64,000 nt of DNA, taken from NCBI GenBank assembly GCA_965153355.1, contig OZ231126.1, forward strand, positions 43,896,001 through 43,960,000, written 5' to 3'. The notes under the pieces are model-generated. The model saw only the letters and a program-made list of their open reading frames with translations. It was not told the origin of the DNA and ran no database searches. Each line of letters opens with the position of its first letter. Position 1 is the first letter of the stretch. The position numbers and the translations under genes were made by a program. The DNA comes from Flaccisagitta enflata. Taxonomy: Eukaryota. Shown piece after piece: positions 5,374 to 43,067 of this stretch.

Positions 5374-5865
5374 TATAAGATACACACAGCAAGACTTGGA
5401 AAGCAAATTTGCTCTTGGTCAACACTGAAAAGAAATTTACCCTTCTCAAAGTGGTACCAAGTGGCCTGGCTCAAATCTTATAGGGCATCAGCCCTGAGGA
5501 GTCTTTTGGCTTGGAAAATGTTCAAATTGCGCAATTCAAGGTTGAAATATTTTTTGGGTTCATGCATCAAAAAAAAACCGAGAAAGAGAAAATGTTATTA
5601 GAGAAATTGGGCTCTTTTTTTTGGCATTACTTGACGGCATTAAATCTAAGATGCATGGTACGCGAAGCACCCAAACCGGGCGAAAAAGCCGTCTTGGTCA
5701 TAAAACCGTTTGGAAATTTGAAATCCAAGCATCCAGTCTTCCCGTGTACATCACAGTCTGGCCGTTCTGTCCATTTTTGCCTTGCCATCATCCCACATCA
5801 TCCTGCATGCTGCAATGAGGGCAGATTTCAAATCGCTGCGGGTTTGGTTTCCTTCAAATTTGTTA

Positions 5866-6467
5866 CAGTGGGGTTCGTGGAATAACAGCCTAAACTGGAG
5901 GAAGGTATTTAAGTGTTTTAATTTCATTTGACAAACTTGATATTTGAAATATAAGTTGTTCACTTGATGCTTTTGTCCCTGAGTTTTTCGGTTGCTATGG
6001 AAACCAAAATTATTTTTTTTAAAAGTTATAACAAGTAGAATATTGGTATTTTGACAAATATTATCAGGGAACATTGCTCAAAATTAAATTTGCTACAACT
6101 TTCCCACAGTGTGTCCTGTAAGAATATCGCTCGTTTAGCCGTTGCTAGGGAGCATCATTTAGCAGTTGCTAGGTGTGATGCCCCTTAGCAACGGCCAAAC
6201 GAGCAATATTCTTACAGAACATACTGTGGGAAAGTTGTAGCAAATTTAATTTTGAGCAATGTTCCCTGATAATATTTCTCAAAATATTGATATTTTAGGG
6301 GTTATAAATGTTTGCAAAAATAATTTTGGTTTCCATAGCAACCAAAGAACTCAGGGACAATAGCATTGAGTGAACAACTTATAATTCAAATATAAACTTT
6401 GTCAAATGAAATTAAGACACTTAAATACCTTCCTCCAGTTTAGGCTGTTATTCCACGAACCCCACTG
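5866..6467. mobile_element. 602-bp fully palindromic MITE (CAGTGGGGTTCGTGG termini, TA TSD; Tc1/mariner-type)
   Basis: Arms pair along almost the whole length; second copy at 44048-44648. Confidence 0.93.
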
Positions 6468-6558
6468 TACGGAAAACGATTCTCGTTATCATCATACATT
6501 TTATAGATTTCTGACGACATATTCAAACAAAATTGCACGATTAACATTATTTGCACTC

Positions 6559-8467: not shown

Positions 8468-9123
8468 CTTTTTTCCTTAACATAATCTTATCACAGGCTC
8501 ATCATACGATCAAGTTGCCTTTTTTTTCTCTGGCGTCCGGGATGAGAGAGAGAGAAGGATGAAAAAATTTCCCTCTTCTTTGCTTCTGAATTATCGGTTT
8601 GAGCCTTACTTAGACTCTCTTCAAGCTCCGATACATATTTTATCAGCTCACGTCCGCAACCCAGAAGATATCCGCACTTGTCCGTGTGTCAGTTGGTGGG
8701 TGATGGTGGCGGTGCGAATGGACATACGATAGAACAAGGCCGGATACACGGGCCAAGACGGCGCGCCGAGCGTTATTAATTCATAGCCATCCCTGGCTCC
8801 ATCAGACCTATCCCCAGCTCTATCAGACCATTCCTAGCTCTATCAGACCTATCCCGCCAGGCGTTATTAATCCATAGCTATCCCTAGCTCCATCAGACCT
8901 ATCCCTAGCTCTATCAGACCATTCCTAGCTCTTTAAGACCATTCCTAGCTCTATAAGACCTATTCCGAGCTCTATCAGGCCTCTCCCGAGCTATATCAGA
9001 CCTTTCCCGAGCTCTATCAGACCTATCCCGAGCTCTATCAGACCTATCATCAGCTCTTTCAGACCTAACCCCAGCTCTATCAGACCTATCCTAAGACCTA
9101 TCCGACCTATCACCAGACCTAAC

Positions 9124-9825
9124 TGTTCGTAATTGCGCCGTATTTTGTTTATCCTCTTATCCATCTACAGGAAATCTCGCTAAATTCGTTATTTTTGGGG
9201 TCGCTCCAAAGACTCGTCTTCCTCATCATCCTCCTCCTCTCTCCTCGATTCCTCGTCCTCCTCATCCTCCCTCCTCGTCATCCTCGACTTCTCTCTTCCC
9301 AATGGACTTCTTCTTCCCAAAAGAAAACATTATCAGAATTCTTCGCCATCATTCAAGATCTAATGACTCATTTTAAGATCATTTAGAGATCATTTAAAGA
9401 TCATTTAAAGATTAAAAGACTCATCGCTTCGCCTTTTCATTGCCTCATTGTATTTCTTCTTGTTATAAGATTTCTCTTTTCTCCCCAGTGCAAGCGAGCA
9501 AGCTTCCATTTTTGTATCGTTTCTATAAGACTTTAATATGGTTATTTCGCGCGTTTGCTGTCATCCCCCCCTTCTGGAAATCATTCATCCTCGACTCCTC
9601 AGGTAGTGAGCCTGCTCAATGATGTGGACTGGCCCACTCTTTTCCTATCGGCTCAAACTAATCCTCCCCCCCTTTCTCTTCTCTTTTGTCATTGTAGAAC
9701 TTACAGATCCCTTCATTCTCCAATTCGCGTATTCGTTCTAGCGGGATTCTTAAGACGGAGTTACTCAGCGATCATCAGGGCATCTAGCTAGCTAATGAAC
9801 TGTTCATACGTCACAAACTCGCACA
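9124..9825 (+). repeat. 5' LTR of element A
   Basis: TGTTCGTAATTGCG...AACTCGCACA; two substitutions seen by eye versus the 3' LTR. Confidence 0.97.
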
Positions 9826-10103
9826 ATCTGTAAGTTCTGACAGTTCACTGGCTCCTTCGGTGAAAGCAAGCGAACAACATCCGCCTCCCCCTCCTCCTCA
9901 TCCTTCCGATCACGAAAGAGCTCAAGAACGTTCTCCTCATCATCTTCCTCTTCACTTCCCCTTCCTCCTCATCCTACCAATTACGCTGAAAGCTCAAGAA
10001 CGTTCTCCTCCTCCTCATCTTCCATTACGTCATCCCTCCTCCTCATTCTTCTAACACGGTGAAAGATAAAGAAACCCTATCCTCTTCCTCATCATCCATC
10101 ACG

Positions 10104-12480
10104 ATGGCAGCAAAGTCCCGCGCAGAAAGAGCCAAAATCCTGGAAGATACTTTAAGAAAAATGCCCGACTTCAACGCCTTGATCGTGGCGGCTGACGCCG
10201 GAGCTATCGGCGGAAGCGGCGCCTCGGTAAACACCGCGATGACATCGGACTTTCAAACGGAAAATGACGAGAGGTCTAGAGAAGCGAAGGCAACGGCACA
10301 AACACTAGGATTGCTCGCGCGTTTCTTCGCTTTACGACATGACGATGTACTAAAAGAATTCGCCGGCGTCGACGATCATGACGCACATCAGGCCTTCCTC
10401 GACATCGACGACATGCGCGTCGCGCTCGTGGGAAAGATGTGGCTGTTTCACGAAATGGTCACGAAAAAACTATTTCCCGCCAATACAAAAGAAGACGTTC
10501 ACGGACGAAAATCGGCTGGAAACCATATCAATGTCATCCTAAAAAACTTTTTCCATACGCGCCGCGCATGCCTTTCACAAGAAACATACGACGACCCTGA
10601 TTACGCCCCAGCCCCACCGACAAAAACTGACTTTGTGCAACAACCCGGCAGAAAGCCGGCGCCGTCGGCGACCCCCGGAAAATCGGGGGAAGTCGCGACG
10701 CCATCGGCTACAGATGTGAAAGTAGACAGAAAAACAATTGCTTCTAAAAATGCGAAAAAGGACGAAGAAGAGCAAGATACTGCGACCGAGAAGCCAGACG
10801 GCGCCGACAACGCCGCCGCAAAAGAATCCGGCGCCCTCGAGGAAGACGGCGCCGAAACCGAGGACGATGCCGAGGCAATTGCGACGGAAGAAGAAAATGA
10901 ACGTCTTGAACAGGTTTTGAGAGAAGAAAATGAAAAAAATATACGTCTCAGAGAAGAACTTAAAAATCTAGAAGCTATCCAAGAAATGCAGAAAAAAGAA
11001 CGGCAAAAGAAAAAGAAAAAGAGAAAAACAAGAAAATGTGAAAACAATTCAAGCAAAAAATCAAGAGATAATCGACAAAATTGACAAAATCCAGTACGAA
11101 ATTAATGATGAAGCCGACGAACCTGCGGATGAAAACGAGATCCAAATTTTTGACAACGGCGCTGTCTCGTCTACAAAAAATGATGCGGCGTCATCGCCCA
11201 ATACAGTCGCCGAATCGTGTGCAGACAACGCCGCCGCCCCTGCTGGAAATGGCAAGAAAAAACGCCGTTACCAAATTAAAGAACACCCAAATGCAGCAAA
11301 AGTACCGCCACCAAATTTCCCACCTCTAGGTAATAGCGGCGCCGCGGGAGGTCATGCATCCCCTGCAGCCGTCGCTGTACAGCAGATTGACGCCGCAGCT
11401 CCGAATCAACCCGACTTTTCAAGACTTATCCATACGCTAGAACTTGATGCTGTCAGACGTAACGTTGTAGGCGTACGTCCTTCAGAACCTTTTAAGCAGT
11501 ACGACGCAAAGAAACAGGGCGAATATAACACACTGATGAACATTTTCGACTCGGCATTCGGTAAAATTAACGGCATATCCGGCAATGAAAAAGTCACGGA
11601 ATTATCGGGACATTGGTTCGCCGGCGCCGCAAAAAAAGCTATCAACGCCGCAAAGCCAACAGTTAACGACCCCAATGGAGACGCCGCTTACAAAGAAATA
11701 AGGTGCCATTTGGACAGTATATTTGCCCACGATGTTGATTCCGCCGCCGACGCCCTTAATCGTTTAAAAGAAGGCGGCGCCATCGCAAGGGACAGCCTCA
11801 TTGCACATCAAGATCTGTACATGAACATGCTAGAAGCTCAGAGCTCCGCGTTGACGGTATCCTCGGCGGAGTTGTTTGACAGAAGGAGTAGCCTCCTAGA
11901 GATCATTTCTGCGCGAATACCATTTTATGCAGAGAAATTCTTTGAAGAATACGAACAAGGAGATGGCTTTCAAAAACTTCTCGATTTTGTCCTTACGCGC
12001 ATTAACCTCCTCAAAATCATTCAAATGTCGATAGAACCCGAAACGACTCAAACGGAAGCCGAAGGAATAAAGCATCAGCATCATCTCCACGCTACCGACC
12101 ATCAGACGCAGCATCATTTTGAACAAAATAAAAGCTGCATGTATTGCAAAAACCGTCACGATACATCAAAATGCGATAAACTTTACTGCCTTTCCATAGA
12201 AGACAGAGTAGCAGTAATTTCCACGCTCCATCTCTGTTACCACTGCCTCCGCCCTGGACACAACGCCAGATCCTGTCCAGAAAAGAGGGAAGTCACCTGC
12301 AGCATCTGCAGCAGGAAAGGGCATGTGACGCTCCTTCATGGCAGGCATCTTCTCCACTCTCCCAACGACTCGCCGTATCGTCACCGACGCAACGATTCTG
12401 ACGACGCCGGCGATGACACAAAGTCCGACCTCGAAGCGCTCGAGTCCAACGGAACTGAGGATGAAAATGAATTATGTTGA
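10104..12480 (+). pseudogene. gag: BEL/Pao-type Gag of element A, split by a +1 frame change in an A-rich tract near 11000-11040
   Basis: ORFs 10104-11084 and 11038-12480 overlap. C-terminal triple knuckle CMYCKNRHDTSKC, CYHCLRPGHNARSC, CSICSRKGHVTLLH is typical of BEL/Pao Gag. Confidence 0.85.
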
Positions 12481-12634
12481 GTCGTTGAGAACTTGGACCG
12501 TAATTCTTCGATCTCTCGTTGTACTCGATCTGCTCATCTCCGTCACGCCATTCAACTCCATTCACGCCATTCATCTCCGTCAATCCATTCATCAGTTCCT
12601 TGAATGAAAACAACAATTAAGATCGGCTTTTCTT

Positions 12635-12709
<75 letters not shown>

Positions 12710-12933
12710 GATTACGACTCGCCTCATAAAAAATTACCGCGTTCACTCGACAGAGGTCATCCTAAAAAAGAAAAAAGCTCTCTCGTTTACTGCGACAAAT
12801 TTCATCACTCCCCCCCCCCCCCGTTCACACAAAATTTCATCCTCGTCATCAAAATCCTTATTCCAACTCAACGCCAACGACAATAAAGCCCCGTTACCTT
12901 CAACTTATCCTCAGCCTCATCACATGAACTATT

Positions 12934-13290
12934 CCCGTCTGTCATCTTCCCGTCTGTTATCTTCCCGTCTGTCATCTTCCCGTCTGTCATCTTCCCGTCT
13001 GTCATCTTCCCGTCTGTCATCTTCCCGTCTGTCATCTTCCCGTCTGTCATCTTCCCGTCTGTCATCTTCCCGTCTGTCATCTTCCCGTCTGTCATCTTCC
13101 CGTCTGTCATCTTCCCGTCCCTCATCTTCCCGTCCATCATCTTCCCGTCTGTCAGCTTCCCCTCTGTCATTTTCTCGTCTATCATCTTCCCGTATGTCAT
13201 CTTCCCGTCTGTCATCTTCCCGTCTGTCATCTTCCCGTCTCTCATCTTCCCGTCTGTCATCTTCCCGTCTGTTCATCTTCCCGTCTGTCA
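12934..13290. repeat. 15-bp minisatellite (TCATCTTCCCGTCTG)n inside element A
   Basis: More than 20 tandem copies, homogeneous at the left end and diverging to the right. Confidence 0.95.
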
Positions 13291-14005
13291 TACTCCCATC
13301 TCTCATCTTCTCTTTTTCGCAATAATCAAACTCGCATCATATGAAAACCATCATTTTTACGTTGGAGGCATCTCCGGCGCTTAGTCGGGGTCATCTCCTG
13401 CGTATCTACATCGCCAAAATCTCTCTCTCTCTCTCGAACCGCCTCTTCTATCAACGAAAATCAGACAAAACTAGGCCTACACCTTCGCATATGACTCTCC
13501 ATGTCATATTAAAGAATCACCCTAAAATGCCGCCGTTTCACCTCAACGTCGGCAACAATGTGTCAACTTTATCCTCGGCGTTGTCCCACACCCATCCCTA
13601 GGGTCTCGTCAACATCGTTCCCGCCATCTACTGACATCGCCCCTCAATCTCGCCTTCTGTCATATCCTGTCACCCGTCCTCATCATCCACGTCCAAGTTT
13701 TGTTTCCTTCGACCTGTTCTTTTGACTAAGCGCCAATAATCGAACTCGCATAATATTCACCGGCATCATCACATCCCCCCCTTAATTCGGATCACGACAC
13801 GAAAAAGAAATTCCTCGTTTTGCCATTACTGACGTCAATGCCGTCAATCTCACCTCTTCTGTATCTCATTTCTCATCCTCCATCACGTCCCTAGCATCTT
13901 GTTCCCACAGACTATTCTGATAAAAAAAAAACATTACTCTACGTTGGAGGCATCCCCGGCTCTTAGTCGGGGTAATCTCTTGCGTATCTCCATCGTCTGA
14001 ATCTT

Positions 14006-14080
<75 letters not shown>

Positions 14081-14476
14081 CCCCTCGTTGATTACAACGT
14101 TATTAACCCCCGTTTCACGTCAACGTCAACAATAATGCGTCAACTTTATCCTCGGCTTTCTGCTCGACCTCGCCATCATCATTCCCGCCATCAACATACA
14201 TCCCCCCTCAATCATGCCTTCATGCTTTCATCTCTTCTCACCCGTTCTCATCATCCACGTCCTAGTTCTGTTTTCTTCTGTTTTCTATCCTGGACTTTAT
14301 CGTCAACTCCTATGGACTACTTATCAATCTCGCCTTCATCATTTTCGACCACTCACGTTTTCTTTCCATTCTCATCTTAATCATTCCGCCATCCCCCTGC
14401 CACTCAGTATCATCATTTTACGTTGGAGGCATCTCCGGCGCTTAGTCGGAGTCATATCTGACATATCTCCATCGCC

Positions 14477-14557
<81 letters not shown>

Positions 14558-14805
14558 CTCGCCCTCTCGCTCTCGCTCTCGCCCTCTCGCTCTCGCTCTC
14601 GCCCTCTCGCTCTCGCTCTCGCCCTCTCGCTCTCACTCTCGCTCTCGCCCTCTCGCTCTCGCTCTCTCTCTCGTTATCATATCTCATATCCTCTCATATC
14701 ACATCGTATCATGCCAGGGATGAGTGCCGTCGCCGTTGGCGAACCCGGGAGATTCTGGGGATGCTACGGCAGCAAATGGCAAAACAGATGCCCTGGATCC
14801 TTCTC

Positions 14806-14889
<84 letters not shown>

Positions 14890-15632
14890 AGAAGAAGAAG
14901 AAGAAGAAGCAACCAACAAAGATGTAGTCCTCGTCCGATCCTCGTCATCCTCCTATCCTCATCCTCGTCATCCGTCCCTTCCTCATCCTCGTACAACGCC
15001 GGCGAATGAGCGTCATCCTCCTTCTCCCCCCGCTCCTCATCAAGCCGCCAAGCTAGGATGCAGTCTAGGATGCAGTCTGGCTCAGTTACGCTTATCTCGC
15101 TCTTCCTCCTCGTCATCATCATCATCATCAATCCCCCAACTCTCGATGGCGGAGACGCGCAATGGATCGAGTCGCCAAGGTCGTGGACGAACGCCGGATT
15201 ATCGGCGGAAAATCTGCGGCGAATGCGGCGACAAACCCGAACCCGTTACTACCGCCATCCTCATCCTCTTCTTCATCCCGATCCTCATCAAACCGCCAAG
15301 CCGGGTCCGACGCCGGAATATCGGCGTGAATCTCGGCGAAAGCGGCGACAAACTTATCTTTGACTCGCCCCATTTTCCCGCATTCCTACACGCGTTTTAA
15401 AGACTCATCCATCTCATCATCCTCATCCTTCTCCTCATCTTCTGTATATAGTTTTTTTTTTGATTCCTTTGTGTTTCTTCTTTTGTTCATCGCACATCCC
15501 CTCCCCCCAGTCCACATCATCATAACTATTTTTTAGATTTTTTTTTTCTCGCTTGCACAGTAGTCTTGTTCTCCCCTTAGTCCCCCCCCTTCGAGAAATC
15601 ACTTCATCTGCCATACTGGCAGATCCTGGGGC

Positions 15633-16334
15633 TGTTCGTAATTGCGCCGTATTTTGTTTATCCTCTTATCCATCTACAGGAAATCTCGCTAAATTCGTTA
15701 TTTTTGGGGTCGCTCCAAAGACTCGTCTTCCTCATCATCCTCCTCCTCTCTCCTCGATTCCTCGTCCTCCTCATCCTCCCTCCTCGTCATCCTCGACTTC
15801 TCTCTTCCCAATGGACTTCTTCTTCCCAAAAGAAAACATTATCAGAATTCTTCGCCATCATTCAAGATCTAATGACTCATTTTAAGATCATTTAGAGATC
15901 ATTTAAAGATCATTTAAAGATTAAAAGACTCATCGCTTCGCCTTTTCATTGCCTCATTGTATTTCTTCTTGTTATAAGATTTCTCTTTCCTCCCCAGTGC
16001 AAGCGAGCAAGCTTCCATTTTTGTATCGTTTCTATAAGACTTTAATATGGTTATTTCGCGCGTTTGCTGTCATCCCCCCCTTCTGGAAATCATTCATCCT
16101 CGACTCCTCAGGTAGTGAGCCTGCTCAATGATGTGGACTGGCCCACTCTTTTCCTATCGGCTCAAACTAATCCTCCCCCCCTTTCTCTTCTCTTTTGTCA
16201 TTGTAGAACTTACAGATCCCTTCATTCTCCAATTCGCGTATTCGTTCTAGCGGGATTCTTAAGACGGAGTTACTCAGCGATCATCAGGGCATCTAGCTAG
16301 CTAATGAACTGTTCATACGTCACGAACTCGCACA
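15633..16334 (+). repeat. 3' LTR of element A
   Basis: Same length and near-identical sequence to 9124-9825. Confidence 0.97.
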
Positions 16335-18349
16335 CTAACCGACCTATCCCCAGCTCCATAAGACCTAACCGTAGCCGATTATATTAGTGAATGAAATGAC
16401 GAGTATCATTTATGATGAACGAAATGAGTTTTCTATTGATTTCAAACGTTTTTAGCGATTTTTTACTCGAGCGTGACCGACGGATGGACGGACGGACGGA
16501 CAGAGCTTCTCATAGAGACGCTATGGCGCATCTAAAAATCATCCTAGCATATTTCTGAATCATTTCCAGTGATTTTTGCTTCTTTTCGAGATTTTCAACT
16601 CGAGCGTGACCGACCGACCGACCAACCAACAGACAGAGCCTCTCATAGAGGTGCTATGGCGCACCTAAAAATGCCATGGGAGGTTCACTGGCAGTTACTA
16701 GACCGCCGCGAATCTTGGACCAATAGATATCTATCATTTCATCATAACAGCATACATTAGAAATGCAATAATTTGAACATCTGATAATCAAAATTCATGA
16801 GCATGATCATGGAAAAATAAAACTTAATAGACAGAGTGCATGAACAAAAAACACTTAAAAGATTGAATGCTATTAACCGCCATTAATCTAAGACCGACAA
16901 TTTGGGACGTCCGCGTCCCTCATTCGCGTCCCTCGCCGTTTGTCCATAGAGGTGTGGTGTTCATCTAACTCTTGCCTATCCTAATTCTGAGAATATCTTC
17001 ATGTACGTGTTTCTCTTTTGTACGGCTGTGGTTCCATATGCACTTTTTGTCTTTGACTCTGTGTTTCTGTTTGTACAATGTGTACAATGTCCATGTGTTC
17101 AGTTCCGGTACAAATTTGCCAATAGATTCTCCATATACAATGACGTCAATTACTGTTTCTATTTCATTCCTTATCTCTACTAACTCTTTCATCAATTATC
17201 AGTCGAACGCTGATGCCGTGAGGAAAATGTCCCAGAAACTTTTCCGTTCATCCTTTGTTTTCCCTCTTTATCATTTATTAATAAAAAAAAATCATATAAT
17301 ACATAATGGCGCAAACACGCTTCTGAAATGTTATCAACGGCTGTGGAGTGTCTCGCACGTAAATACGTCAACCCCGGTCTCGATCTATCTTACCACCTTG
17401 TCCATTTTTCATCCCTTTAACAACGGCTTTGACCTACATCTCCGCGATCACGAGTATTTATGATGTCCCTCGCACGTGACCTTTGCTGCATTAACCCTCA
17501 TTTCCACATTCTTTATATCGTGTTGATTCCGCCATCCACCATTTAGTCATACGACCCGTACATTTTGATTGAATGATCTTCTTCTTATCAACCATTACCA
17601 AGTCATGCTAACTTCCGTCAACCATACATTTTTCTAGGGGGGAGAGTAAGGAAAGGAGGTCCTTTTAGACCCATTTACCAACTTTTTTCCCTTTCGCTTA
17701 AACACATAGGGTGTAACATTGAAGACAATTCAGGTCTTGTTTTCGGCATTTCACTGCAAAAAAATCAATGTTTGTTTCTGAAAATTTACCTTATTTAATT
17801 CGATTTATTTATTTTCCAGTGTCGACGTTGCATCCCTTTCTGTACTTTCGGCTATCCACATTCTTTGCTGTTAGCGTTTGCCCCCAACCAACTCCCCCTT
17901 TCTACTCCCCCTCCCTTCAAAGCTAAGCTACTATTCTACTTGTTTCCCATTCCGGGGCCTTTTGTCTTTCTCTCCTCGTTCGTTGGTCGGTGGCAAGTGA
18001 GTGACAGAAAACGGAGTCTTTGACATATTTCCTCCCATATATTCTCGCGTTCTCCTCCCCTTTACCCCCCCCCCCGCCTTGCCCCCACCCCAATCATATC
18101 ATGAGCTTCCGCCGACCCACCTCCCTACTGACTTTTCTTATTTCTTTTTTCTTCTTTTCCTTTTTCTATTCATTAATTCGTTTATTCATTCATTCATTCA
18201 TCCATTAATCCATTCATTTATTCATTCATTCATTCAACATCTATTCATCTTCTTCCTTTCTTTCTCTTTTTTTCCTTCTTTTTTAAAAGATGTGGTTTTT
18301 GCTCTCTATTTTACGTTTGGCTTTTAATTATGCCTTTCCCACTCCCTCA

Positions 18350-23064: not shown

Positions 23065-25053
23065 ACGACAGACAGTGAGACAGAATGACCGACAGCGAGA
23101 CAGTACGACAGACACAGCGAAACAGTAAGATAGACACAAAAAGACTGACATACCAAGACACAGATATGCATCCATTAACACTGCATAAACACAGATTTTA
23201 TATGTCCTTGATAGCCAAAACCGTTGGAACTGCAGAATCGACAATGGTGGCCTCGTCTTCGTTTGTTTCGTCCTCTGCTTCATTGAGTTTGGCAAACTCA
23301 TGTTCGATGGTGTCATCTTTGTTGCCTCATTATGATTGGCAGCAGTATAATCGACAGGTTCATGCTTAACAGCGACATGCCTAACAACGTCAACTCCAAT
23401 GAAGTGAGTTATAAAACTGCATGCCCGTGATATACTTTCGTTTATAAGGAATCTGATCTGATCTTTGATAGAAGGAAGAGGAGACAGATAGAAAGTACAA
23501 AACAAACAAATAAATAAAAGAGAAAGAAAGTAACAAAGGTAGGTGGGAACGAAGAGTGAAAGGATGAAAGGAAGGAAATAAGTGAGGCGGGGTCACAATA
23601 TCGTTGCAGAAGAGTGGGCAGGGGCATCGAATTCCCATGCACACTCAATGCCCCCCACACATACACTTAAATATCTAAAACATTCATTTTTGCACTTTTC
23701 CTTTCCTTTTTTTGCCCTGCGAATTAGTGACTCATCCAAAAAAAAAAAAAAATGATCCAATTGGGTGCTTTACATAGCAAAAGTTGGTTATTTCTTTTCA
23801 CCCTCTTTACCTAATATGAAATGGCTAATTTTAGGACTTGCAATTTTTTTTTATTTAAATTTGTTTATTTTTTATTTATTAGCATTTCATTTTGCATAAT
23901 GCAGTGCTAGTGGGATAAAACAATATGCTGACATTTTTTGAAATAACTTTTGCTGATTTTTATTCTTTATAGAAATGTTAATCTGCCTATTAATAAGCTC
24001 TTTCATAGCTTATGTCCTGATTTTTAATCGTGTGCAGGCGACTCTACAACCCGCTTTGTCGGTTCGTCCGTCTGTCTGTTGGTCTGTCCTTCTGTTGGTC
24101 CATTGGTCACAATTTACTTTTTAGATGCGTCATCGCATCTCTATAAGAGGGTCTGTCCGTCGGTCCGTCCGTCGGTCCGTCCGTCCGTCCCGTCCGTTAC
24201 GCCTCTTCTAATATCACACAGATGACGCATCTAGTTGCCCGATCGGGCTTGTTTATTATACTTTAAGCTATTTCTAATAATTTTAAGTCATTTTTAAGTC
24301 ATTTTTAAGTCATTTAAGTCATTTTAAGTCATTTAAGTCATTTAAGTCAATTTTAAGTCATTTCTAAGTCATTCTTAGTTAAATTAGGTCACATAAGTTA
24401 AATAGGTCAAACTAGTCATTTCAGTCATTTTATGTCTTTTTAGGTCATTTAAAGTCGTCTTGAAAGTCAATAAAAGTCATCTTAGGTTATCTATGTCCCG
24501 CACGCGACTTAAACATGTTGGCCTTGTTTAATCTGTTATCATGAACACCATCTTTCATTTATACTAATGATTATCCTTTTAGAAACAGAATTACACACTG
24601 TTTTACTAATTTCTGGAATTTTTAGGAACTTTAAAACTAAAACAAAAATGGAAGATGATGGAATTTAGAAAAAACAAGTGACGCAGAGTCACAATATCGT
24701 TGTGGACGAGTGGGCAGGGGCATTAACATGCATCCACACCCCATGCCCCCCTCACCAACTAAAAAAAACATTTAAAACGCTTGTTTTTCCACTTTGACTT
24801 GTGGATTACAGACCATGGCACAGATAGACAAATGGATGGATGGATGGACAGACGGACAAAATTTTTCCTAGAGTTGCGTATCGGCAACAAATAATGGTCA
24901 TCTTCATAATTTTTACTCTTCTACAATATGTAAATAGGGTGAAGGGATACTCACAACTTTTGCTATGTGAAGCACCCAAATGATCCGACCTTACTAGGAA
25001 TCGTAACCGAGGCGAGCATTATTTGTATTTCGGCTGATTTGATTGGTCAAGAG

Positions 25054-29355: not shown

Positions 29356-32110
29356 TATTCCATGGGAATTTCATATTTTTTTCATTTTTCATCAATTTTC
29401 CATGTTATTCTATGGGTAGTTTGCAATTTATCAATTTTCCATGTTATTTAATGGGAAATTGAGGCTTGAGAAGCTGGGGGGATGGACGTGCGGACGGACG
29501 GACGGACATTTGGAAATTCACCCCTGTGTCCTACAAGGGTTCAAGTTGAGAGAATTTCTAACATTCTGTATTGATTGCGTTTGTTGTTTTTTCGTCGCTT
29601 TTTTCTTATCTTTTGTCCCTTTTTCGACATTTCCTGATAGTCATAGGTGTGTCTTACTATATCTCTACCTATACATCGTCAGTCGGTCTGTGGTGATCGA
29701 GTTGGAAAGCGTGAAAATGTGCACTTCCGTCCCTGCCCACCCGTCTGCGGCTGATATTGGCCCTTGTTTCTGTTCATGTCCCAAACGACTAAGAAATGAT
29801 GACTTCAGAACAAATTCAAAGATTACAATTTAGGACACAGTTTATTTGAACGACAAACTCGGTCTATCAGTTTTTTATAACTTTAAGTTATTAGAATAAT
29901 AAATAAATAAACTCATAGATAGTTTGTTAAGTCCAGAACTATAGTTTTTAATACTACAAAATTATAATTCAGCAGTATTTTACATCTGCATATATGTAGA
30001 ACATACCTTAGATAATTATCAAAAGAACAATATTTATAATTGAAAATATGATAGATGAACGAATAGACAAATGAATTAATAGAAAGATTAAGATAGCAAA
30101 ATCATTTTGTTTGTCGGAGTCTAAAAATAATGATGAAATTAATCATTATTATTAGTGTGTAAACTATTAAAAAATTATAATGATATTGTATTATGAAATG
30201 AATAAAACAATCTATTAAATTCATACATTTCTAAAAAAAGATCTAATCTAAAACATATTTCAAGTGAAATTATGAAGCCCTTTAGTTCAATAATATGTAA
30301 AAAAATATAAATTAGAAATGCTAGTTTTTAAAATTAAAAACAAATAAAATAATCTATTTTTAGAATCTTATTTTTAGTCGCGGACACGCGACTCTACACC
30401 TTGCCGTGTCGGTCGGTAAGCCAATAGGTCGGTCCGTCCGTTTGTCCATCCGTCCGTCCGTCCGTCCGTCCAAGCGGTTTTCGCATCACTGCTCCTGCCC
30501 AACCGTCCGCGACTGGATTGCCGTGTACCTGGCCATGTTAAATGATATTTGATTTTTTAAAATCTTTAACCTTAAAAAAATCGGGTAATTTGTATTTAAA
30601 TTTCTATAATTTTTAACTCTAATTAAATCTTGCCTCGACCCTCAAATTTTACCTCTCGTTTGCATCTTGACTTAGATTAAGTTACAGCGAATGAGCTTCT
30701 TAATTCTATATAAACCGAAAGTGAGAGAGAATCTTGAATAAACCGAAAGTGAGAGAAATAGAGAGAGAACAAGGCCGGATACACGGGCCAAGACGGTGCG
30801 CCGGGCGTTATTAATTCTTAGACCTATCCCTAGCTCAATCAGACCTATCCCTAGCTCTATCAGACCTATCCCTAGCTCTATCAGACCTATCCCGAGCTCT
30901 ATCAGGCCTATCCCGAGCTCTATCAGACCTATCCCTAGCTCTATCAGGCCTATCCCGAGCTCTATCAGACCTATCCCAAGCTCTATTAGACCTATCCCGA
31001 GCTCTATCAGACCTATCCCGAGCTCTATCAGACCTATCCCCATACCTATCTGACCTATCACCAGACCTATGCGACCTATCCCCAACTTGATCAGACCTCA
31101 ACTTAGCTGATTATTTTGGTGAATGAAATGAATTTTTGTGAATGAAATGAATTTTGTGAATGAAATGAACGAAATGAGTTTTCAATTGATTTCAAACATT
31201 TTCAGCTAATGAAATAAATGAATGAATGAATGAATGAATGAATGAATGAATGAATCAATCAAGGAATGAATGAACGAATGAACGAATGAATGAATGAATC
31301 AATCAATCAATGAATGAACGAATGAAGGAATGAATGAATGAATGAATTTATGAATGAATGAATTTATAAATGAATGAATGAATTTATGAATGAAATGAAT
31401 TTTAGTGAATGAAATGAATTTCATTGAATGAAATGAATTTTAGTGAATGAAATGAATTTTAGTGAATGACCTCAATGTAGCTGATTGTTTTAGTGAATGA
31501 AATGAATTTTAGTGCATGAAATGTATTTCAGTGAATGAAATGAACGAATTGAGTTTTCAATTGATTTCAAACATTTTCAGTGAATGAATGGAATGAATGA
31601 ATGAATGAATGAATGAAATGAATGAATGAATGAAATGAATGAATGAAATGAATGAATGAATGAAATGAATGAATGAATGAAATGAATGAATGAATGAAAT
31701 GAATGAATGAATGAAATGAATGAATGAAATGAATGAATGAAACAAATAAATGAAATGAATGAATGAAATAAATAAATGAAACAAATAAATGAAATGAATG
31801 AAATGAATGAAATGAATGAAATGAATGAAATGAATGAAATGAATGAAATGAAATGAAACGAATGAAATGAAATGAATGAAATGAATGAAATGAAATGAAA
31901 CGAATGAAATGACTGAAATGACATGAAATGACATGAAATGAATGAAACGAATGAATGAATGAAATGAATGAAATGAATGAAATGAATGAAATGAATGAAT
32001 GAAATGAATGAATGAAATGAATGAATGAAATGAATGAATGAAATGAATGAATGAAATGAATGAATGAAATGAATGAATGAAATGAATGAATGAAATGAAT
32101 GAATGAAATG

Positions 32111-32607
32111 TGTGAGATTGCGACATGGTTTCCTGCCGCCAGTTCACGCTTTTGGCGATTGCTTGTCTATTTAGCTTAGCGTGAACACGTCCTTTTTCTG
32201 CCTAATTTGCATGTTGAGGCGTGTGGAAAATGAGAACTTCCATTGTAATTCTACATCGCCGCCAATGTGTCTATTTTGTTTAAGTAAAATAAATTAATGA
32301 AAGTTTGCCACCACACCTCTCACAAAAAGGCTCTAAATTGAACAAGAAAAAGGAAAAAATTAATACATGACCCCACAGTTGAGACAATACGAGACCAAAA
32401 CGATAAAAACGATGCAATAACGATAAAACGACGCGAAAACGATAAAAATACAAGGAAAAAAATGATAAAAAACGCGCACATATCCCCAGCAGCGAAGCAT
32501 CGATAAAGAATAAAATCAACTCCGTAAGACTACGGACGGAAAAAATCAAAAAGGGCAATGCATGCGACAAAAAATGGAAACAAAAAACAAAAGACGCATT
32601 TCCAAAA
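32111..32607 (-). repeat. 3' LTR of element B
   Basis: Near-identical to 37335-37831. Confidence 0.95.
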
Positions 32608-34909
32608 CTCCCGGCCAATTTTTTAATTTAAAAAATTTTTTCCCAAAAAAGTTTCGAGAGGGGGGCAAAATCTAAGGATAGCATAAAAACAAAGAAAAAT
32701 TGGGGGAGATCGAGTAAGGATGGGGACACACAAACGAAAACAGCACACACCACCCGCGCATTCCCCTGGGGACGAAGGGTGCTACTGCTCTGCAGCTTGC
32801 TCAATAGACAAACACCCCCTTCCCGTCTCACTCGACCATGCTACCCAAAGGACAAAATTGGCGACTAAACTACAGCTAATACAATGACAAATTAATATAA
32901 CGATTCAGATGGTATGTTAATGAGACGCACCCCTACCCCCATCAAGACCCACCACCCACCGTCTACAGGGCCAGCACCCAATCACCGACCAAGGTGGCGC
33001 CGCTGCCTTAGGCTCGGTTCCAGCTTATGCCATTATCAACGTTACCGTCGACGATGAACCAGCAGCTTCACGGCGGCCTTGGGGCCTTGTTGCGCAACTA
33101 CCAGGACAGTGAAAGAAAAAGACAGGAACCAACCCTCGCCCTTAGTGGACCGACCCAAGGGATATGACCAACGACTAACGACCAAATGAGGCCTGAAACA
33201 TAACCACACAGGCCACATCCACGCCTGGGGAAAAATGGTAGCCTGCCCAGGGGCCCGCCCAACAAGACAGGAAGGCGAGGAACTCAATAAGGGGCAATAC
33301 AACGCACGCCTCTTTTCATCTTTCCCTTGAAAACCTCACCCCCCACTCAACAAACGTGTTAGTACCCCAACCACGACGCTGTCCGGGAGCATAATCACTC
33401 GCGAGTGGAAGAGGCTTCTTTTTGTTGAGATCTAGGGATCATTGAGTAGACATGGGCTGCTGCCAAATTGACAATCGACTTCATCGCCCGCACGAAAGAG
33501 TCAATTCCACAATGGCCGCCAAAACAAGACATAAGAGAGCCGGCGTTGAGGAGAATTTACCTAGTTAAGACGGGGATAGGGGGGGGGGGAAGGGGGGTTT
33601 GGGACCTTGTGGTATTTCCAGACAGGGGAACATGACCGGAAATACATCAGGGATTAAAAACCAGCAATGATAAGAGATACTACACCTAAAATAAATAATT
33701 AAAGTCAGCCAACGTGTAAATGTCACGTTAAGAATAGATAGAAATAAAAAATGCGCAAACGCAAAACGAACAACGAAATCACGTGCTAAAAACGCGAAAC
33801 GCAAAACGAAATTGACCAAAAATACCAATCAATGACCAGTAATAAATAATGTTACAATAATAATGCATAAAAATGATAAAAAGGCGCAGCCAAAAAACGA
33901 CAAAACCATCCCTTATCCCCTACCCATTGGGTAACAAATCACAAGCGATAAAAACAGAAGAAACCAAAAGAGAAAAGGAGACAGAGCGAAACGGAGCAGG
34001 GAAGAGAAAGAGTCAAAGGGAGCAGGGAAGAGAACGAAAGAACACAAGAGAGGCAAAAACGAGAAGGAAAAAAGAAAGGAGAGACCGAGAGAGAGAATGA
34101 GAAAGAGAACGAGAACGAGAAAGAGAACGAGAGAGAGAACGAGAGAGAGAACGAGAAAGAGAACGAGAAAGAGAGCGAGAGAAACAACAAAACAGAACGA
34201 GAAACAGAACGAGAGAAACAACAAAACAGAACGAGAAACAGAACGAGAGAGAACAAAAACACTACGCAAAACAAAACAATGCCCATCACCTAAAATGATG
34301 ATGAGAAAGAGCGTGGAAATCGACTTTCGGAGATTCCTCTGCTTCTTTAATCCCATCGAACGTCGAGAGACGTAGCCAGTGGAGGAGGAGGAGGAGGAGA
34401 AGACGGAGGAAGGGAGAATGATCGGCGCCATCTTTGAAAGGAGTCGAGACGACGAGTGCCGCCATCTTTCTTCCTGCGTGGGCCGGAAGTGATCACGGGC
34501 GCCCTCCAGCAATTGAAAAAACCGTCCGGAAGCAACTGTTGGGTGAATACAAAGAAAACACGCAAACAGAGGACGTAAAAACGTTATCAAAACACTAACA
34601 GATAAGGGGCGGGAAAAGAAAGGGCTATGCATTGAAACGATTTGACTCAGTGCAACATGGTCAAGCAATCCTCAATGTCAATCACTCTTTCAATTAAACT
34701 TATCCGTTTTAGAAGTGTCGATATGGAACACATAAAAATGCATTCCATCGCCAAAATCCAAAATCCAGCTGTCAAAGGCCCCTCCACCGGACAAATGGAA
34801 GACTTCAAGGAGCTGGGGACGCGTCTGTTTGCAATCACGTGACTTGTATGGACATGAAGGCGCATTTGCGGAAGTGAGGCAAGAAGGGTAGATTGGATGG
34901 TAAAATAAC

Positions 34910-36937
34910 TCATTGATTAAAATTCCGGCCGTGAAGGATCGTTGCGTGGCCTCGGCCGCACATTTGACACGTTGGCTTATTGTCGCAGTATTTGGCCGTG
35001 TGGCCCTTCACAAGGCAATGGTAGCAGAGTTCACGCTTTGACAAAATGTCCACCCTTGAGTCGACGGAGACTTCTATCAAAATGGGGCACTGGGAGGTAG
35101 GGTGGGGATGGCCACAAACCCCACACACCGTCACATGTTCGTCGGGTGGCATTTGCCCACATTTCCTTTTAATTATTGCCCATCGCTCCACCAGCTCTAC
35201 CAAATTACGGTAGTCATAGCTTCCGCGGCCACTCATTTCCGATTCAAAGTTTTCCGTCCAAAATTTGTCGGCGAGATGAGGGAGTCGATTATTGAGGATG
35301 AGACGAAGTCTGTTATCGTTATGACACACCTCTTCCTCTCCACACACCATCGCCACCTTTTCAGCCTTCAGCAATTCCGCGTATAGGAGAAAGTGGGCCT
35401 TGTAATCATGCTCTGCGATTGGAGGAGCGGATGCAATTCCATCAAGCAGTGCGCCAACTGTACTTGAGTCCCCTTGGAATATCGTGTCCATCCGTTTAAA
35501 GCACTGCCCCAACTCAAAGGCGGCAGTTTCTGCTGTCACGCCAATTGTCGCCGTCATGATGACATCAGATACAGGGCCACTAAACCAATGTGGTAACTCC
35601 AAAATCATGTCCATTTCCGTAATTCCCTTGTTATTTGCTGCCTCCAGAAATCTCCGTTTCACGACAATGTAGTCTGCAGGCGTCAATGACTGGTATGGAG
35701 TTCTTGGTCGCGCCTTTTCCAAGTTCCTATAACCAATTTCCCGCCATCTAATGAAATTGTCCGCATGGGATGCTGTAATGAATTTCCCAATGGCACCATC
35801 TAGCGAGACTGTTGAGGGTTGGTGCGCTAAACCCTGCCGTGCCGCATGGGAACCCGTTTGGCGCCGCGTTAAAGGAGATGAAGGAGGAAGAGGAGAATGA
35901 AAGTGGTGTTCATCGATAGATTGAGATTCGTTGACCCCTGCAGCCATCTGTTGTCTCGGCGGTTGTTGTTGGTAACCACCACCAAACGCTGACCGCCGCT
36001 GGGGCACATAGTCTTCCTTTACGATTGTACCACGTAGTGGAGGCGGAGGAGGAGGATTGGAAGGATGGTGATGAATTTGTGTCGTCTGAGGTTCATGGTG
36101 ATCTGTGACTGTCGGACGTTCCTGGGATGGTTGCTGATGTCGATAACCACCACCGACTACTACCAACTGCTCGTGATCTCCACCCACCTGCCTGACGATC
36201 TCACCATCACCATTCGCAGTTCTAGCAATCTGATCCCCCTCGATTCGATATTGCCGCTGATGGTGCTGCTGACGAGCTTGTTGAGACACCGGAGGTTGTC
36301 GATGATGGTGCTGTTGAAGCTGCTCGTGTACCGGCTCTCGCGTTGTTTCTTCCGAAGAGAAATGTTGCATCGGCCTAACATCCCGCTGCTCAAATGCGCC
36401 ATCTAATTCACCTCGGTTCTGGTCGTCCCAACTCATGCGTCGCAATGCCTCGTCAACCGCTTCCGCATCAAAACCCAATTTATGGGGGGTACATCGGCAA
36501 TATTTAAGAATTCCCTCCGTTGTCGGGAATTTATCGGAGTACAAGTCTGTTGCGAAAAATTTCATCTTTGCCCATTTGCTACGCACAGTTTTCAGGCTAT
36601 TTGCAGTGTACGTCCACAAATCGTATGCATCGTCAAGCTCGCCTGATTTCGAAATGTCGTTGGTTTTGGCGAGGTAACGATAAACGATTCCTTGAAGGCC
36701 GTCGCGCGCAAAATCTGAATCTGCCGCTGCCATTTCATCTTCGGGGTTGATGGCCGCGTTATTAAAGGCCATTTGAGCCTCATTTAAGGCCGCTACCACA
36801 TTTGCCCGCATCTCGCGCAACTCGATGATACGATCATGTTGGCAACCCGCAAAGTATGATGCCAAAGACGAAATTGAGGTGTTGTGTACACCCCTATCAA
36901 CCATCGTTGTCGACGGAACAGACATTCTAGCGTCCAT
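34910..36937 (-). CDS. gag: Intact BEL/Pao-type Gag of element B, 675 aa
   Basis: Uninterrupted ORF with knuckles CGVCGHPHPTSQC, CYHCLVKGHTAKYC, CQMCGRGHATILH. Aligns by eye with Gag A (ELPHWFSG vs ELSGHWFAG; RLPHLADKFW vs RIPFYAEKFF). Confidence 0.93.
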   Translation of the reverse strand: MDARMSVPSTTMVDRGVHNTSISSLASYFAGCQHDRIIELREMRANVVAALNEAQMAFNNAAINPEDEMAAADSDFARDGLQGIVYRYLAKTNDISKSGELDDAYDLWTYTANSLKTVRSKWAKMKFFATDLYSDKFPTTEGILKYCRCTPHKLGFDAEAVDEALRRMSWDDQNRGELDGAFEQRDVRPMQHFSSEETTREPVHEQLQQHHHRQPPVSQQARQQHHQRQYRIEGDQIARTANGDGEIVRQVGGDHEQLVVVGGGYRHQQPSQERPTVTDHHEPQTTQIHHHPSNPPPPPPLRGTIVKEDYVPQRRSAFGGGYQQQPPRQQMAAGVNESQSIDEHHFHSPLPPSSPLTRRQTGSHAARQGLAHQPSTVSLDGAIGKFITASHADNFIRWREIGYRNLEKARPRTPYQSLTPADYIVVKRRFLEAANNKGITEMDMILELPHWFSGPVSDVIMTATIGVTAETAAFELGQCFKRMDTIFQGDSSTVGALLDGIASAPPIAEHDYKAHFLLYAELLKAEKVAMVCGEEEVCHNDNRLRLILNNRLPHLADKFWTENFESEMSGRGSYDYRNLVELVERWAIIKRKCGQMPPDEHVTVCGVCGHPHPTSQCPILIEVSVDSRVDILSKRELCYHCLVKGHTAKYCDNKPTCQMCGRGHATILHGRNFNQ

Positions 36938-37334
36938 TGGAAACTGGCGCGATAACGTTTTTAGAGTCCATTTTGCTTGGACTTTTTCACTTGCTTAGTC
37001 TACGCATCACCCGTCGGTTTTAGCTCGCAGAAAAATGGACCGGGTTCGCTACCACCGACCATGTCAAAATTCAGCGTCAGTTAAGCATCACCCGTCGGTT
37101 TTTAGCGCGCAAATAAACAGGTTCGCTACCACCAGACGCCAAATGCACTTGGGGAAAAGCACAATGTATCTCGACGTTAAAAGGACGATTCGTCGACGCG
37201 TAAATTCTCTCATTGACATCACGTCCCGGCGCCCCGGCGCCATAGGCCGTCACTTAGCATGACAGCATCCCGGGTCAGGGCAGGGGACACGAATAGACGA
37301 GTGAAGACGGCGTCGATTTTTTAATTTATTTTAC

Positions 37335-37831
37335 TGTGAGATTGCGACATGGTTTCCTGCCGCCAGTTCACGCTTTTGGCGATTGCTTGTCTATTTAGCT
37401 TAGCGTGAACACGTCCTTTTTCTGCCTAATTTGCATGTTGAGGCGTGTGGAAAATGAGAACTTCCATTGTAATTCTACATCGCCGCCAATGTGTCTATTT
37501 TGTTTAGGTAAAATAAATTAATGAAAGTTTGCCACCACACCTCTCACAAAAAGGCTCTAAATTGAACAAGAAAAAGGAAAAAATTAATACATGACCCCAC
37601 AGTTGAGACAATACGAGACCAAAACGATAAAAACGATGCAATAACGATAAAACGACGCGAAAACGATAAAAATACAAGGAAAAAAATGATAAAAAACGCG
37701 CACATATCCCCAGCAGCGAAGCATCGATAAAGAATAAAATCAACTCCGTAAGACTACGGACGGAAAAAATCAAAAAGGGCAATGCATGCGACAAAAAATG
37801 GAAACAAAAAACAAAAGACGCATTTCCAAAA
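37335..37831 (-). repeat. 5' LTR of element B
   Basis: Reads TTTTGGAAATGCG...CAATCTCACA on the minus strand; one substitution seen versus 32111-32607. Confidence 0.95.
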
Positions 37832-38126
37832 AAATGAATGAATGAAATGAATGAATGAAATGAATGAATGGAATGAATGAATGAAATGAATGAAATGAAT
37901 GAATGAATGAAATGAATGAATGAAATGAATGAATGAAATGAATGAATGAAATGAATCTTAGTGAATGAAATGAATCTTAGTGAATGAAATTAATCTTAGT
38001 GAATGAAATGAATCTTAGTGAATGAAATGAATTTTAGTGATTGAAATGAATGAAATGAGTTTTCAATTGATTTCAGACATTTTCAGCAAGTTTTCATTCG
38101 AGCGTGACCAACGGATGGACAAACCT

Positions 38127-41045: not shown

Positions 41046-43067
41046 CAGAAAGACAGAGAGAAACAGAAAGTCAGAGAGAAAAAAAATACGCACACAAGCA
41101 GACAGTATGTACATTGTACATATACAGAGGCAGAACATAAACGCCCGGTGGATGAGAGAGGTTGACTCGGCGGCGGCAAAAAAACAAAAACAAAAACAAA
41201 AACAAAAGCAAAAAAACAATGAATGCCCGATGCAACTTGTGATGGGTTGAAAGGCAGATAGACAAGGCCGGATGGACGACCAAGTCGCCAAGTCGCTAAG
41301 AGTTTGGCAGAGACAGAAGAAAACGGTCAGTTTTGCGTCATCCAAAAATCCAAGAACCCGCTAAGAGTGCGGCTACATCCTCGGATGGACAGTCGAAAAA
41401 ATAAGGCCAATAAGGCCAATAGGGTGCGACGTGTTGATAGTCAAAACTGACTTAACGGCAATTCGAAGTAAAACGCCGAATACACGGTGAATAAGTAGTC
41501 CTTCGCGGATGGCCAGAGGCAGTGATATCAGAGGGCAGGGTCAGTAATGCTAAGAGATTACGGCAACATGGGCTGATTTCGCGTCATCCAAAATGTTTCA
41601 TTAACCACCGCCCGACCGTTTGACGGACGAAAGCACTCTTTTAAGCGACTTGCTCGGTCGGGCGAGTGGGCGGCGACCCGCATGATTTTTAAAGAGGCGT
41701 AACGCCTAACGGATTACGTACGGACGGACTGATGGACGGACAGACCCTCTTATGAAGATGCGATTGCGCGTTAAACAAGCTCAGGCGGGCAACTCGATGC
41801 GTCATCTGAGTGATATTAGAAGAGGCGTAACGGACGGACGGACGGATGGACGGACAGACCCTCTTATAGAGATGCGATGACGCATCTAAAAAGGGAAGCA
41901 AATAGTCTAGAAGAGACCATCGACCGGCAGTAAAGCGGATGAGTTTCGAAGCGAGAGGCCGTTCACTCGCCATCTCATTCCACAATCCACATTCATGTTT
42001 CATTGAAATGGAGGTTAATACAGGATTTCAAAAGCGATAAATTGTTGTTAACCAACATCCGCAATGACAACTTCATGATGAAACAATGTTTCAAAATGTT
42101 ACTTAAGATATGTTAACAGTATCATTTGGTTGTTTTCAGAGCGGTATCATCGTATAACATTGAGTAAAACAAGGCCGGAAACACGGCTACCCCAGTCGCG
42201 TGCGGGTGGGAGGAGCCATACTTGAGGTCACTTGATCATTTGGACAGGAGCAGTGAGGCCAAAGACCGCAAAAAAAAAGAAAAAAGTAAAGTGTGACGGA
42301 CAGATGGACCGACGAAACGACGGACCGACAAAGCGGGGTGTAGAGTTGCATAGCACGCGACTAAAAAGTCCATTTTTCCCCACTGGTAGGGGGTGATGGG
42401 ACTGGCGAGGTAATATAATGGCTAACCACGGGTAAAACGGGTCACCCACTTTATTCGGCCATAGTGTTAATTTCAGTAAAATTTCTATTTTCATCCAAAA
42501 CTAGATAGTAGATACACTAAACCTTCCTTTTCCTTAATTTTGCTCAGATTCTTGGAATAAAGTGGGTGACCCATTTTACCCCAGGTGACCCGTTTTTACC
42601 CCCACGCCTACCCTAGTTATTGCAATGTGGCAAACAAACGGCCACAACCACGACATCTAATTTACATTTTCGCATCTGTGGTAAAACCCCAGCCCCCGAA
42701 TAACGTCTAACCTCACATTAATGATTTTTCGATACCATTAAAGTAGCAAAAACAAAATCACACCCACAAGATCTGCATGTTGTCCCCAGTTCATATTTCA
42801 TTAAACGTGACCTATGATTTTGCGCTGGTGGTTAAAGTGGCAAACAAACGGCCGCGACCTCCACATGCGTTCCATCATACTTGACAAGTCAACACAGCCG
42901 CCAGCAGGCAGCCACAGATTGTATCGAAACCGAATCAAAGGCTAAGGCTAAGTCCAATCTTCAACCGTCTGGAAAGGGGAAAAGGGGAAAGGATCGTGCG
43001 GATATTTGGGGTATCAGAATGAGTGGTTGGGGTAACGTCGTTTTTGGGCAGCGACCCCGTGGGACCC

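Follow-up and report, generated by a model that had tools for sequence, protein, structure and literature searches.

A putative self-primer in place of a tRNA primer-binding site in two gag-only, BEL/Pao-related retrotransposons of Flaccisagitta enflata

A 64,000-nucleotide stretch of the Flaccisagitta enflata genome (GenBank assembly GCA_965153355.1, contig OZ231126.1, positions 43,896,001 to 43,960,000 of the forward strand; the whole stretch is called the window here) contains two long terminal repeat (LTR) retrotransposons, element A on the plus strand and element B on the minus strand, in which the bases directly following the 5' LTR are the exact reverse complement of a segment inside that LTR. 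The complementarity is real, lies far beyond chance and recurs with full compensation in a distant relative. Judged from sequence, the two sites are probably Tf1-like pairs of a self-primer and its primer-binding site (PBS), which replace the usual tRNA PBS. The elements that carry them are best read as two recently inserted gag-only retrotransposons of one divergent lineage with a BEL/Pao (DUF1759)-type Gag, and the most likely explanation of the whole is that these gag-only elements use a known mechanism which is undescribed for their lineage.

The self-complementary sites of elements A and B

The features on which this reading is built are as follows.
9124 to 9825, plus strand: 5' LTR of element A, 702 nt, TGT...ACA, 99.7% identical to 15633-16334 (2 mismatches)
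15633 to 16334, plus strand: 3' LTR of element A, with the second copy of the primer segment at 16205-16217
9689 to 9693, plus strand: TCATT initiator-like motif just upstream of the primer segment, putative promoter and transcription start site (TSS) region of element A
9696 to 9708, plus strand: predicted self-primer of element A, AGAACTTACAGAT, the putative start of R; exact complement of 9826-9838
9826 to 9838, plus strand: predicted PBS of element A, ATCTGTAAGTTCT, abutting the LTR end and without TGG; exact complement of 9696-9708
37335 to 37831, minus strand: 5' LTR of element B, 497 nt, ending ...TCTCACA, 99.8% identical to 32111-32607 (1 mismatch)
32111 to 32607, minus strand: 3' LTR of element B, with 1 mismatch in 497 nt against the 5' LTR
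37520 to 37524, minus strand: TCATT initiator-like motif of element B, whose last two bases are also the first two of the primer segment
37508 to 37521, minus strand: predicted self-primer of element B, TTAATTTATTTTAC (minus strand); exact complement of 37321-37334
37321 to 37334, minus strand: predicted PBS of element B, GTAAAATAAATTAA (minus strand), abutting the LTR end and without TGG; exact complement of 37508-37521

The initial annotation of this DNA had described for element A an exact reverse complementarity between 9826-9838 and 9696-9708 and a post-LTR site that does not begin with TGG, and both are found in the sequence. As it had also stated, the 3' end of the LTR segment pairs with the base abutting the LTR, 9708 lying opposite 9826 at offset 0 from the LTR end, and its possible 14th pair, a G-U between U9695 and G9839, fits. 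No TGG occurs in the first bases after the 5' LTR of A, which start ATCTG, the first being ~24 nt downstream. Exact 13-mers of this kind are expected by chance in the element A LTR at 5.6e-6, and a 13-nt complement was reached in 0/20000 mononucleotide shuffles of that LTR (maximum 11). With at most one mismatch allowed the 13-nt pattern occurs three times in the window, in the two LTR copies and in the PBS, against 0.13 expected, a count reached in 0/100 shuffles. The TCATT that the same annotation had placed at 9689-9693 is present as one of 10 such sites in the LTR of A, compared with 3 in that of B, and because it is frequent in the one and rarer in the other it is supporting, not strong, evidence.

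Element B provides a second case. Read in the gag orientation, 14 of 14 nt after its 5' LTR are complementary to an LTR segment, again at offset 0, and no self-complementary site follows the LTR in the opposite orientation. The sequence after the 5' LTR starts GTAAA and has no TGG in its first 30 nt. A 14-nt complement was obtained in 3/20000 shuffles of the element B LTR. The primer-PBS duplex has a predicted free energy of -16.7 kcal/mol in A and -10.1 kcal/mol in B. In A it is present in the minimum free energy (MFE) and centroid folds (z = -1.25 for the RNA from R through U5 to the PBS), and in B it closes the MFE fold and is again found in the centroid (z = -4.5). The predicted R-U5 is 130 nt long in element A and 187 nt in element B.

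The two elements are distant relatives. Their Gag proteins are 29% identical over 307 aa (E = 2e-28) and both have three knuckles. The LTRs can be aligned only at their extreme termini, 5' T.TT.G.AAT and 3' TC.CACA (A 9124-9133 and 9816-9825; B 37822-37831 and 37335-37344, minus strand), and this likeness between ends of otherwise unalignable LTRs suggests that related integrases mobilise both elements. When the duplexes are anchored at the LTR end, 10 of 13 positions differ between A and B; all ten differ on both sides and none on one side only. Covariation of the post-LTR and intra-LTR segments among related families, which the initial annotation had proposed as a check, is thus seen in this comparison of two elements, every change being compensated. 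Crossed pairs of the primer of one element with the site of the other have energies of -2.5 and -2.4 kcal/mol, far from those of the own pairs. The LTR segment is followed in A and B alike by a C that faces the LTR-terminal A, so that the helix stops exactly at the LTR boundary. The TCATT motif is placed slightly differently in the two, ending 2 nt short of the primer segment in A and reaching over its first 2 nt in B. The inference of self-priming made for A alone is strengthened by this second element, with its 14/14 pairing at offset 0 and its compensated changes; the BEL/Pao label attached to it holds for Gag only.

Attempts to widen the comparison at the DNA level yielded nothing to add to it. 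A Gag profile found no match in metagenome contigs or in viral contigs, and two BEL/Pao polyprotein queries were also without a match in the viral contigs. Ten metagenome-contig loci sharing an 18-nt word from U5 were considered, but BLAST with the LTR aligned 4 of the 10, over 19-28 nt round the word, and all ten were set aside as chance matches.

Proposed priming mechanism and its alternatives

By analogy with Tf1 we infer the following course, in which the TSS, the cut and the helper enzymes (the reverse transcriptase, RT, and ribonuclease H, RNase H, needed for priming) are all putative. Transcription would start at the LTR segment or a few bases upstream of it, beside TCATT, so that R would begin with the segment. 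The RNA would then fold its 5' end back onto the post-LTR site, or pair in trans with that of a co-packaged RNA. A helper RNase H would cut after the last paired base, that is after 9708 in A and after 37508 in B, and from the freed 3'-OH minus-strand strong-stop DNA would be primed across U5-R, over 117 nt in element A and 173 nt in element B. Both elements would be mobilised in trans by the pol of the helper.

Several observations agree with such a course. The duplex ends at the last base of the LTR in both A and B, which is where a minus-strand primer must end. Neumann et al. 2019 define a self-primer operationally as a stretch of 10 bp or more, starting 0-5 bp after the 5' LTR, that can pair with that LTR, and the sites of A and B both have this form. 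A scan for tRNA genes found none in the window, and comparison with Rfam gave nothing relevant, with one sub-threshold snoRNA match (E = 0.23). The sites belong to working elements, since recent movement is shown by the few mismatches between LTRs (2/702 in A, 1/497 in B) and by intact 5-bp duplications.

RNA evidence was sought in five marine metatranscriptome runs that contained 6-20% of the sampled words, and in a raw-read poly(A) run. Four runs were aligned, giving fragmentary contigs at 90-99% likeness; assembled contigs of this kind cannot show where an RNA starts. Sequence of the A family, from gag and from the R-U5-leader region, is present in the marine metatranscriptome contigs. One contig of 255 nt (X1), ~95% alike, spans 9695-9915 and so covers the LTR/PBS junction together with the two segments; it shows 11 differences, and among the differences listed none lies within either segment. 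A second contig (X2) covers 9518-9724. The raw-read run (X6) gave zero reads and hence no test of the start.

A number of points weigh, or may weigh, against self-priming. The sample consists of two elements only, and the RNA 5' end and the cleavage are predicted ones. Upstream of 9695 contig X1 has 31 more letters, which look like a diverged U3 end. Were it a single genuine transcript, its start would lie 31 nt or more before the primer segment, and X2 too, taken as a single transcript, would place the start upstream of that segment, with the caveat for both that de Bruijn contigs can join the U3-R of a 3' LTR to the R-U5 of a 5' end and that the libraries may contain DNA. X1 is also the only diverged contig over both A segments, and it shows no listed change in them. 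The initiator-like A9691 is 5 nt upstream of the paired segment and not its first base, and the 10 TCATT sites in the A LTR make the motif a common one there. No canonical AATAAA is found in the predicted R-U5 of A or B. The site of element B is AT-rich and of low complexity, with a single G/C in 14 nt. Finally, the RNase H of an unseen helper pol would have to cut an RNA duplex.

Three other explanations of the paired segments were weighed. The best of them, which we nevertheless regard as unlikely, is that the two paired segments make up a structural stem with a role in packaging, dimerisation or translational control, the true primer being another RNA. Conserved long-range stems are generally known from the leaders of retroviruses and retrotransposons, in the predicted folds all of R-U5 is enclosed by the duplex, and the TSS that self-priming calls for is a predicted one. 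A primer must, however, anneal directly 3' of the LTR end, since its annealing defines that end, and in both elements the position is filled completely by the self-complementary site; in the first 0-5 nt after either LTR there is no TGG, nor any other candidate site common to the two. Nor is there a reason for a purely structural stem to stop exactly at the LTR boundary, as the duplex does in both.

Less probable again is that a small RNA of the host acts as primer, be it half a tRNA, an internal piece of one as in copia or some other abundant RNA, and that the LTR simply bears a copy of its sequence. Half-tRNA priming is documented in Ty1/copia lineages. For A and B, though, two different host RNAs would be needed, each copied exactly into a comparable part of the LTR next to an initiator-like motif; the lone G/C among the 14 nt of B is unlike a nuclear tRNA, and neither the Rfam comparison nor the tRNA scan of the window offers a tRNA-like candidate.

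Chance complementarity, or a by-product of the many inverted repeats in the window, can be given very little credence: in a crude control in which every 7th window position was taken as a mock LTR end an anchored complement of at least 13 nt was found at 138/8858 positions on the plus and 121/8858 on the minus strand (1.4-1.6%), and the B site is AT-rich, but in a separate CA-anchored scan most matches fell in large foldback or palindromic repeats, which the LTRs of A and B are not, shuffled LTRs reached the observed lengths never (A) or three times (B), and the sites occur in two related elements, both at offset 0 and, for B, in the gag orientation alone. Self-priming thus remains the reading that we prefer for both elements.

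The Gag family and comparison with known systems

Assignment of A and B to a family depends on their Gag. A Pfam scan gave only a weak zinc knuckle for the A Gag and nothing relevant for that of B, with no direct match to DUF1759. A Gag profile was built from A, B and seven close relatives, and at a cut-off of E <= 0.001 it retrieved 8781 proteins. Six long matches were examined with Pfam. Two (P0121 and P0152) have DUF1759, Peptidase_A17 (the Pao peptidase), RVT_1, an integrase zinc domain and DUF5641, two (P0140 and P0159) have subsets of these domains, one (P0109) has DUF1759 and aspartyl protease domains, and one (P0083) has none of the BEL/Pao-type domains. The profile matched the polyproteins with BEL/Pao domains at E about 1e-17 to 1e-19. 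Alignment of the profile with P0109 by hhalign gave a probability of 97.4% over the C-terminal half of DUF1759 and the three knuckles, tblastn of BEL/Pao polyproteins reached both gags with E down to 4e-15, and the ESM Atlas contributed weak leads only, to DUF1759 clusters with scores of 0.91-0.92. The Gag relatives carry BEL/Pao domains, not Ty3/gypsy ones. By these comparisons the Gag proteins of A and B are remote relatives of the BEL/Pao DUF1759-type Gag with CCHC knuckles.

No such assignment can be made from pol. In tblastn searches no protease, RT, RNase H or integrase was found to be encoded in A, in B or anywhere in the 64-kb window; seven queries taken from the long profile matches, five of them with BEL/Pao-type domains, matched the two gag regions and gave nothing below E = 0.4 elsewhere. 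The open reading frame (ORF) list contains no long ORF downstream of gag in element A (~12.5-15.6 kb) or in element B. There is accordingly neither a Pao-type Pol (Peptidase_A17, DUF5641) nor a Gag-Pol of the Tf1/sushi Ty3/gypsy kind. With no pol in the elements or the window A and B are gag-only and non-autonomous, and with no pol to place their membership of BEL/Pao, which in the strict sense depends on pol, is putative and drawn from Gag. The description of A as a BEL/Pao-type element in the initial annotation is therefore sustained for Gag, by profile, hhalign and tblastn, and not for pol, of which none is encoded. LTRs of BEL/Pao elements have the termini TGT...ACA and are flanked by a short target duplication. 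Element A has TGT...ACA and a 5-bp target-site duplication; B ends ...CACA, starts TTTTGG and has a 5-bp duplication that lies in a microsatellite.

The closer relatives also lack pol, a pol domain being found in none of nine (eight of ~790-1070 aa and one of 610 aa). A word-indexed search found no fused Gag-Pol among the longer proteins, whereas the exhaustive profile search did find distant ones. Many Gag relatives (P0020-P0099), 780-1070 aa in length, have no Pfam domain and are extended at the N-terminus by long, unrelated stretches. Every close relative comes from a marine assembly and a distant one from an ant. These data suggest a large undescribed gag family in marine eukaryotes. More tentatively, and with doubt somewhat outweighing confidence, A and B may sample a large undescribed clade derived from BEL/Pao that has given up tRNA priming, is wholly self-primed in the manner of Tf1 (13-14 nt primer, initiator-type TSS) and spreads largely as gag-only parasites of an unseen helper. 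If the whole clade were self-primed, self-priming would occur in all three superfamilies of LTR retrotransposons, through either repeated convergence or a retained ancestral mode of hairpin priming.

Self-priming is best known from Tf1. The primer of Tf1 is reportedly 11 nt long, compared with 13-14 nt for those of A and B. In Tf1 and Tf2 of Schizosaccharomyces pombe and Tj1 of S. japonicus there is no tRNA PBS; the PBS adjoins the 5' LTR and can pair with a segment of that LTR which is taken as the 5' end of the mRNA, and the primer has to be released by a cut where the duplex ends. A and B resemble them in the position and self-complementarity of the site and in having no tRNA PBS, and the course proposed above shares the cut. 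Tf1 and Tj1 are, however, autonomous Ty3/gypsy elements of the Tf1/sushi group, whereas A and B have a BEL/Pao-type Gag and no pol, and self-priming by Tf1 was demonstrated experimentally while that of A and B is deduced from sequence. Self-priming has also been inferred for Tj1 and for several fungal and vertebrate Tf1/sushi elements. The initial annotation had given the range of the mechanism as Tf1/sushi, where it is indeed known, but the range is wider, since Neumann et al. 2019 predict it for the plant lineages Tcn1 (Ty3/gypsy) and TAR (Ty1/copia). These were recognised by the same sequence definition as that applied here to A and B, and they show that self-priming is not confined to one superfamily; because of them the step to a third superfamily is less surprising. 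The Tcn1 and TAR elements differ from A and B in encoding pol and belong to other superfamilies and hosts.

BEL/Pao elements themselves (Belpaoviridae, Semotivirus) have a Gag core and a three-knuckle C-terminus homologous to those of the A and B Gag, and their polyproteins carry protease, RT, RNase H and integrase, all four of which A and B lack. The International Committee on Taxonomy of Viruses profile of Belpaoviridae gives host tRNA-Arg or tRNA-Gly as primer, with an 18-nt PBS; no TGG-initiated site of that kind follows the LTR of either A or B. The text of the main BEL/Pao survey contains no mention of PBS, tRNA, priming or primer. That no report of self-priming in BEL/Pao was known had been remarked in the initial annotation, and likewise none was found in open-access full text, Repbase reports, subscription journals and supplements being outside that search. 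With non-autonomous elements of the LARD (large retrotransposon derivative) and TRIM (terminal-repeat retrotransposon in miniature) types A and B share LTRs, a primer site and a tract resembling a polypurine tract (PPT) in the absence of pol, but unlike those they keep a long gag ORF (~700-790 aa) that is conserved in many relatives.

Primer choice is one of the few mechanistic characters by which families of LTR retroelements are described. If the reading given here is right, each of the three LTR-retrotransposon superfamilies would have related elements with predicted self-priming, which would bear on the proposal that hairpin or self-priming preceded tRNA priming. Annotation pipelines that require a tRNA PBS would miss or misjudge such elements. 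Cutting of RNA-RNA duplexes would be expected of the helper RNase H, and this is an uncommon activity, Tf1 being the element for which it has so far been shown. A further question is posed by the gag-only design, that of an element with its own capsid and its own primer and a borrowed pol.

Insertion sites, interiors and other repeats in the window

The remaining features of the two elements are listed here.
9119 to 9123, plus strand: target-site duplication of element A, left copy CTAAC, matched by 16335-16339
10104 to 12480, plus strand: element A gag in two frames, with three C-terminal Cys/His knuckles, from the ORF list and relatives
12481 to 15624, plus strand: element A interior without pol, with simple repeats and a 15-bp tandem array
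15625 to 15632, plus strand: short G-rich tract CCTGGGGC, putative PPT position of element A
16335 to 16339, plus strand: target-site duplication of element A, right copy CTAAC, matched by 9119-9123
34910 to 36994, minus strand: element B gag ORF, 694 aa, with three knuckles as in A and 29% identity to the A Gag
32608 to 32616, minus strand: G-rich tract GGCCGGGAG (minus strand), putative PPT position of element B

Comparison of the window with itself reveals a direct repeat at an offset of 6509, in which 9123-9825 and 15632-16334 are identical except at 9480 and 9815. The LTR proper is 9124-9825, because the CTAAC duplication occupies 9119-9123 and 16335-16339, and the full span of element A is 9124-16334. 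Near-identical LTRs and an intact target duplication mark the insertion as recent. Element A was inserted at the edge of a 21-bp tandem array (8728-9121), similar units resume in its 3' flank, and a related array is found at 30763-31157. The gag of A is in two pieces in different frames, 10104-11084 and 11029-12480. An intact protein of 792 aa from a public marine assembly (P0002) matches across both at 92-96% identity, which places the change of frame within 10991-11029, in an A-rich stretch; it is either a real frameshift or a homopolymer assembly error. In the interior the 15-bp tandem array occupies 12842-13351 (24 copies), and (CT)n/(GA)n runs also occur. The junction of the putative PPT tract with the 3' LTR recurs as loose contig ends in runs X1 and X2. 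A 7-mer, CAGATCC, is found both at the 3' end of the primer segment and directly ahead of the PPT-like tract; it may have arisen by chance in AT-rich sequence or mark a recognition or cyclisation element shared by the two places.

Element B is flanked by AAATG at 32106-32110 and 37832-37836 and lies in an AATG/AAATG-type microsatellite (32085-32110, 37832-37874), an insertion site that leaves its target duplication and the exact 5' end of its LTR (TTTTGG, not TG) somewhat ambiguous. It contains a 13-nt direct repeat, TAAATTAAAAAAT (element orientation), one copy being within and just after the PBS and the other just upstream of the PPT-like tract (approximately 37311-37329 and 32618-32635, minus strand). 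As with the 7-mer of A, this may reflect chance in an AT-rich sequence or a shared recognition or cyclisation element.

Elsewhere the window is rich in repeats. A 610-bp repeat (5858-6469 and 44041-44658) matches its partner in both orientations at 90-94% and is for that reason palindromic or foldback-like. An inverted repeat pair, 44649-45077 and 52517-52951, is 88% identical with its arms ~8.3 kb apart, and possibly represents the terminal inverted repeats of a DNA transposon. Other long inverted repeats occur at ~48826-49300, 50636-50894 and 55979-56217, and a satellite at 47100-48530 has a period of ~160-164 bp and copies that are 62-89% alike. Other sites in the window at which CA is followed by self-complementary sequence fell only in foldback repeats and in a short dispersed unit. 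That unit, at 24122-24233 (plus strand) and 41796-41898 (minus strand), has 13-nt inverted ends, TAGATGCGTCATC ... GATGACGCATCTA, ~86 nt apart, the second arm being preceded by ...ATATCAC(A/T)CA. It has no clear likeness to an LTR and was not taken as one, and a partial copy lies near 16475-16538.

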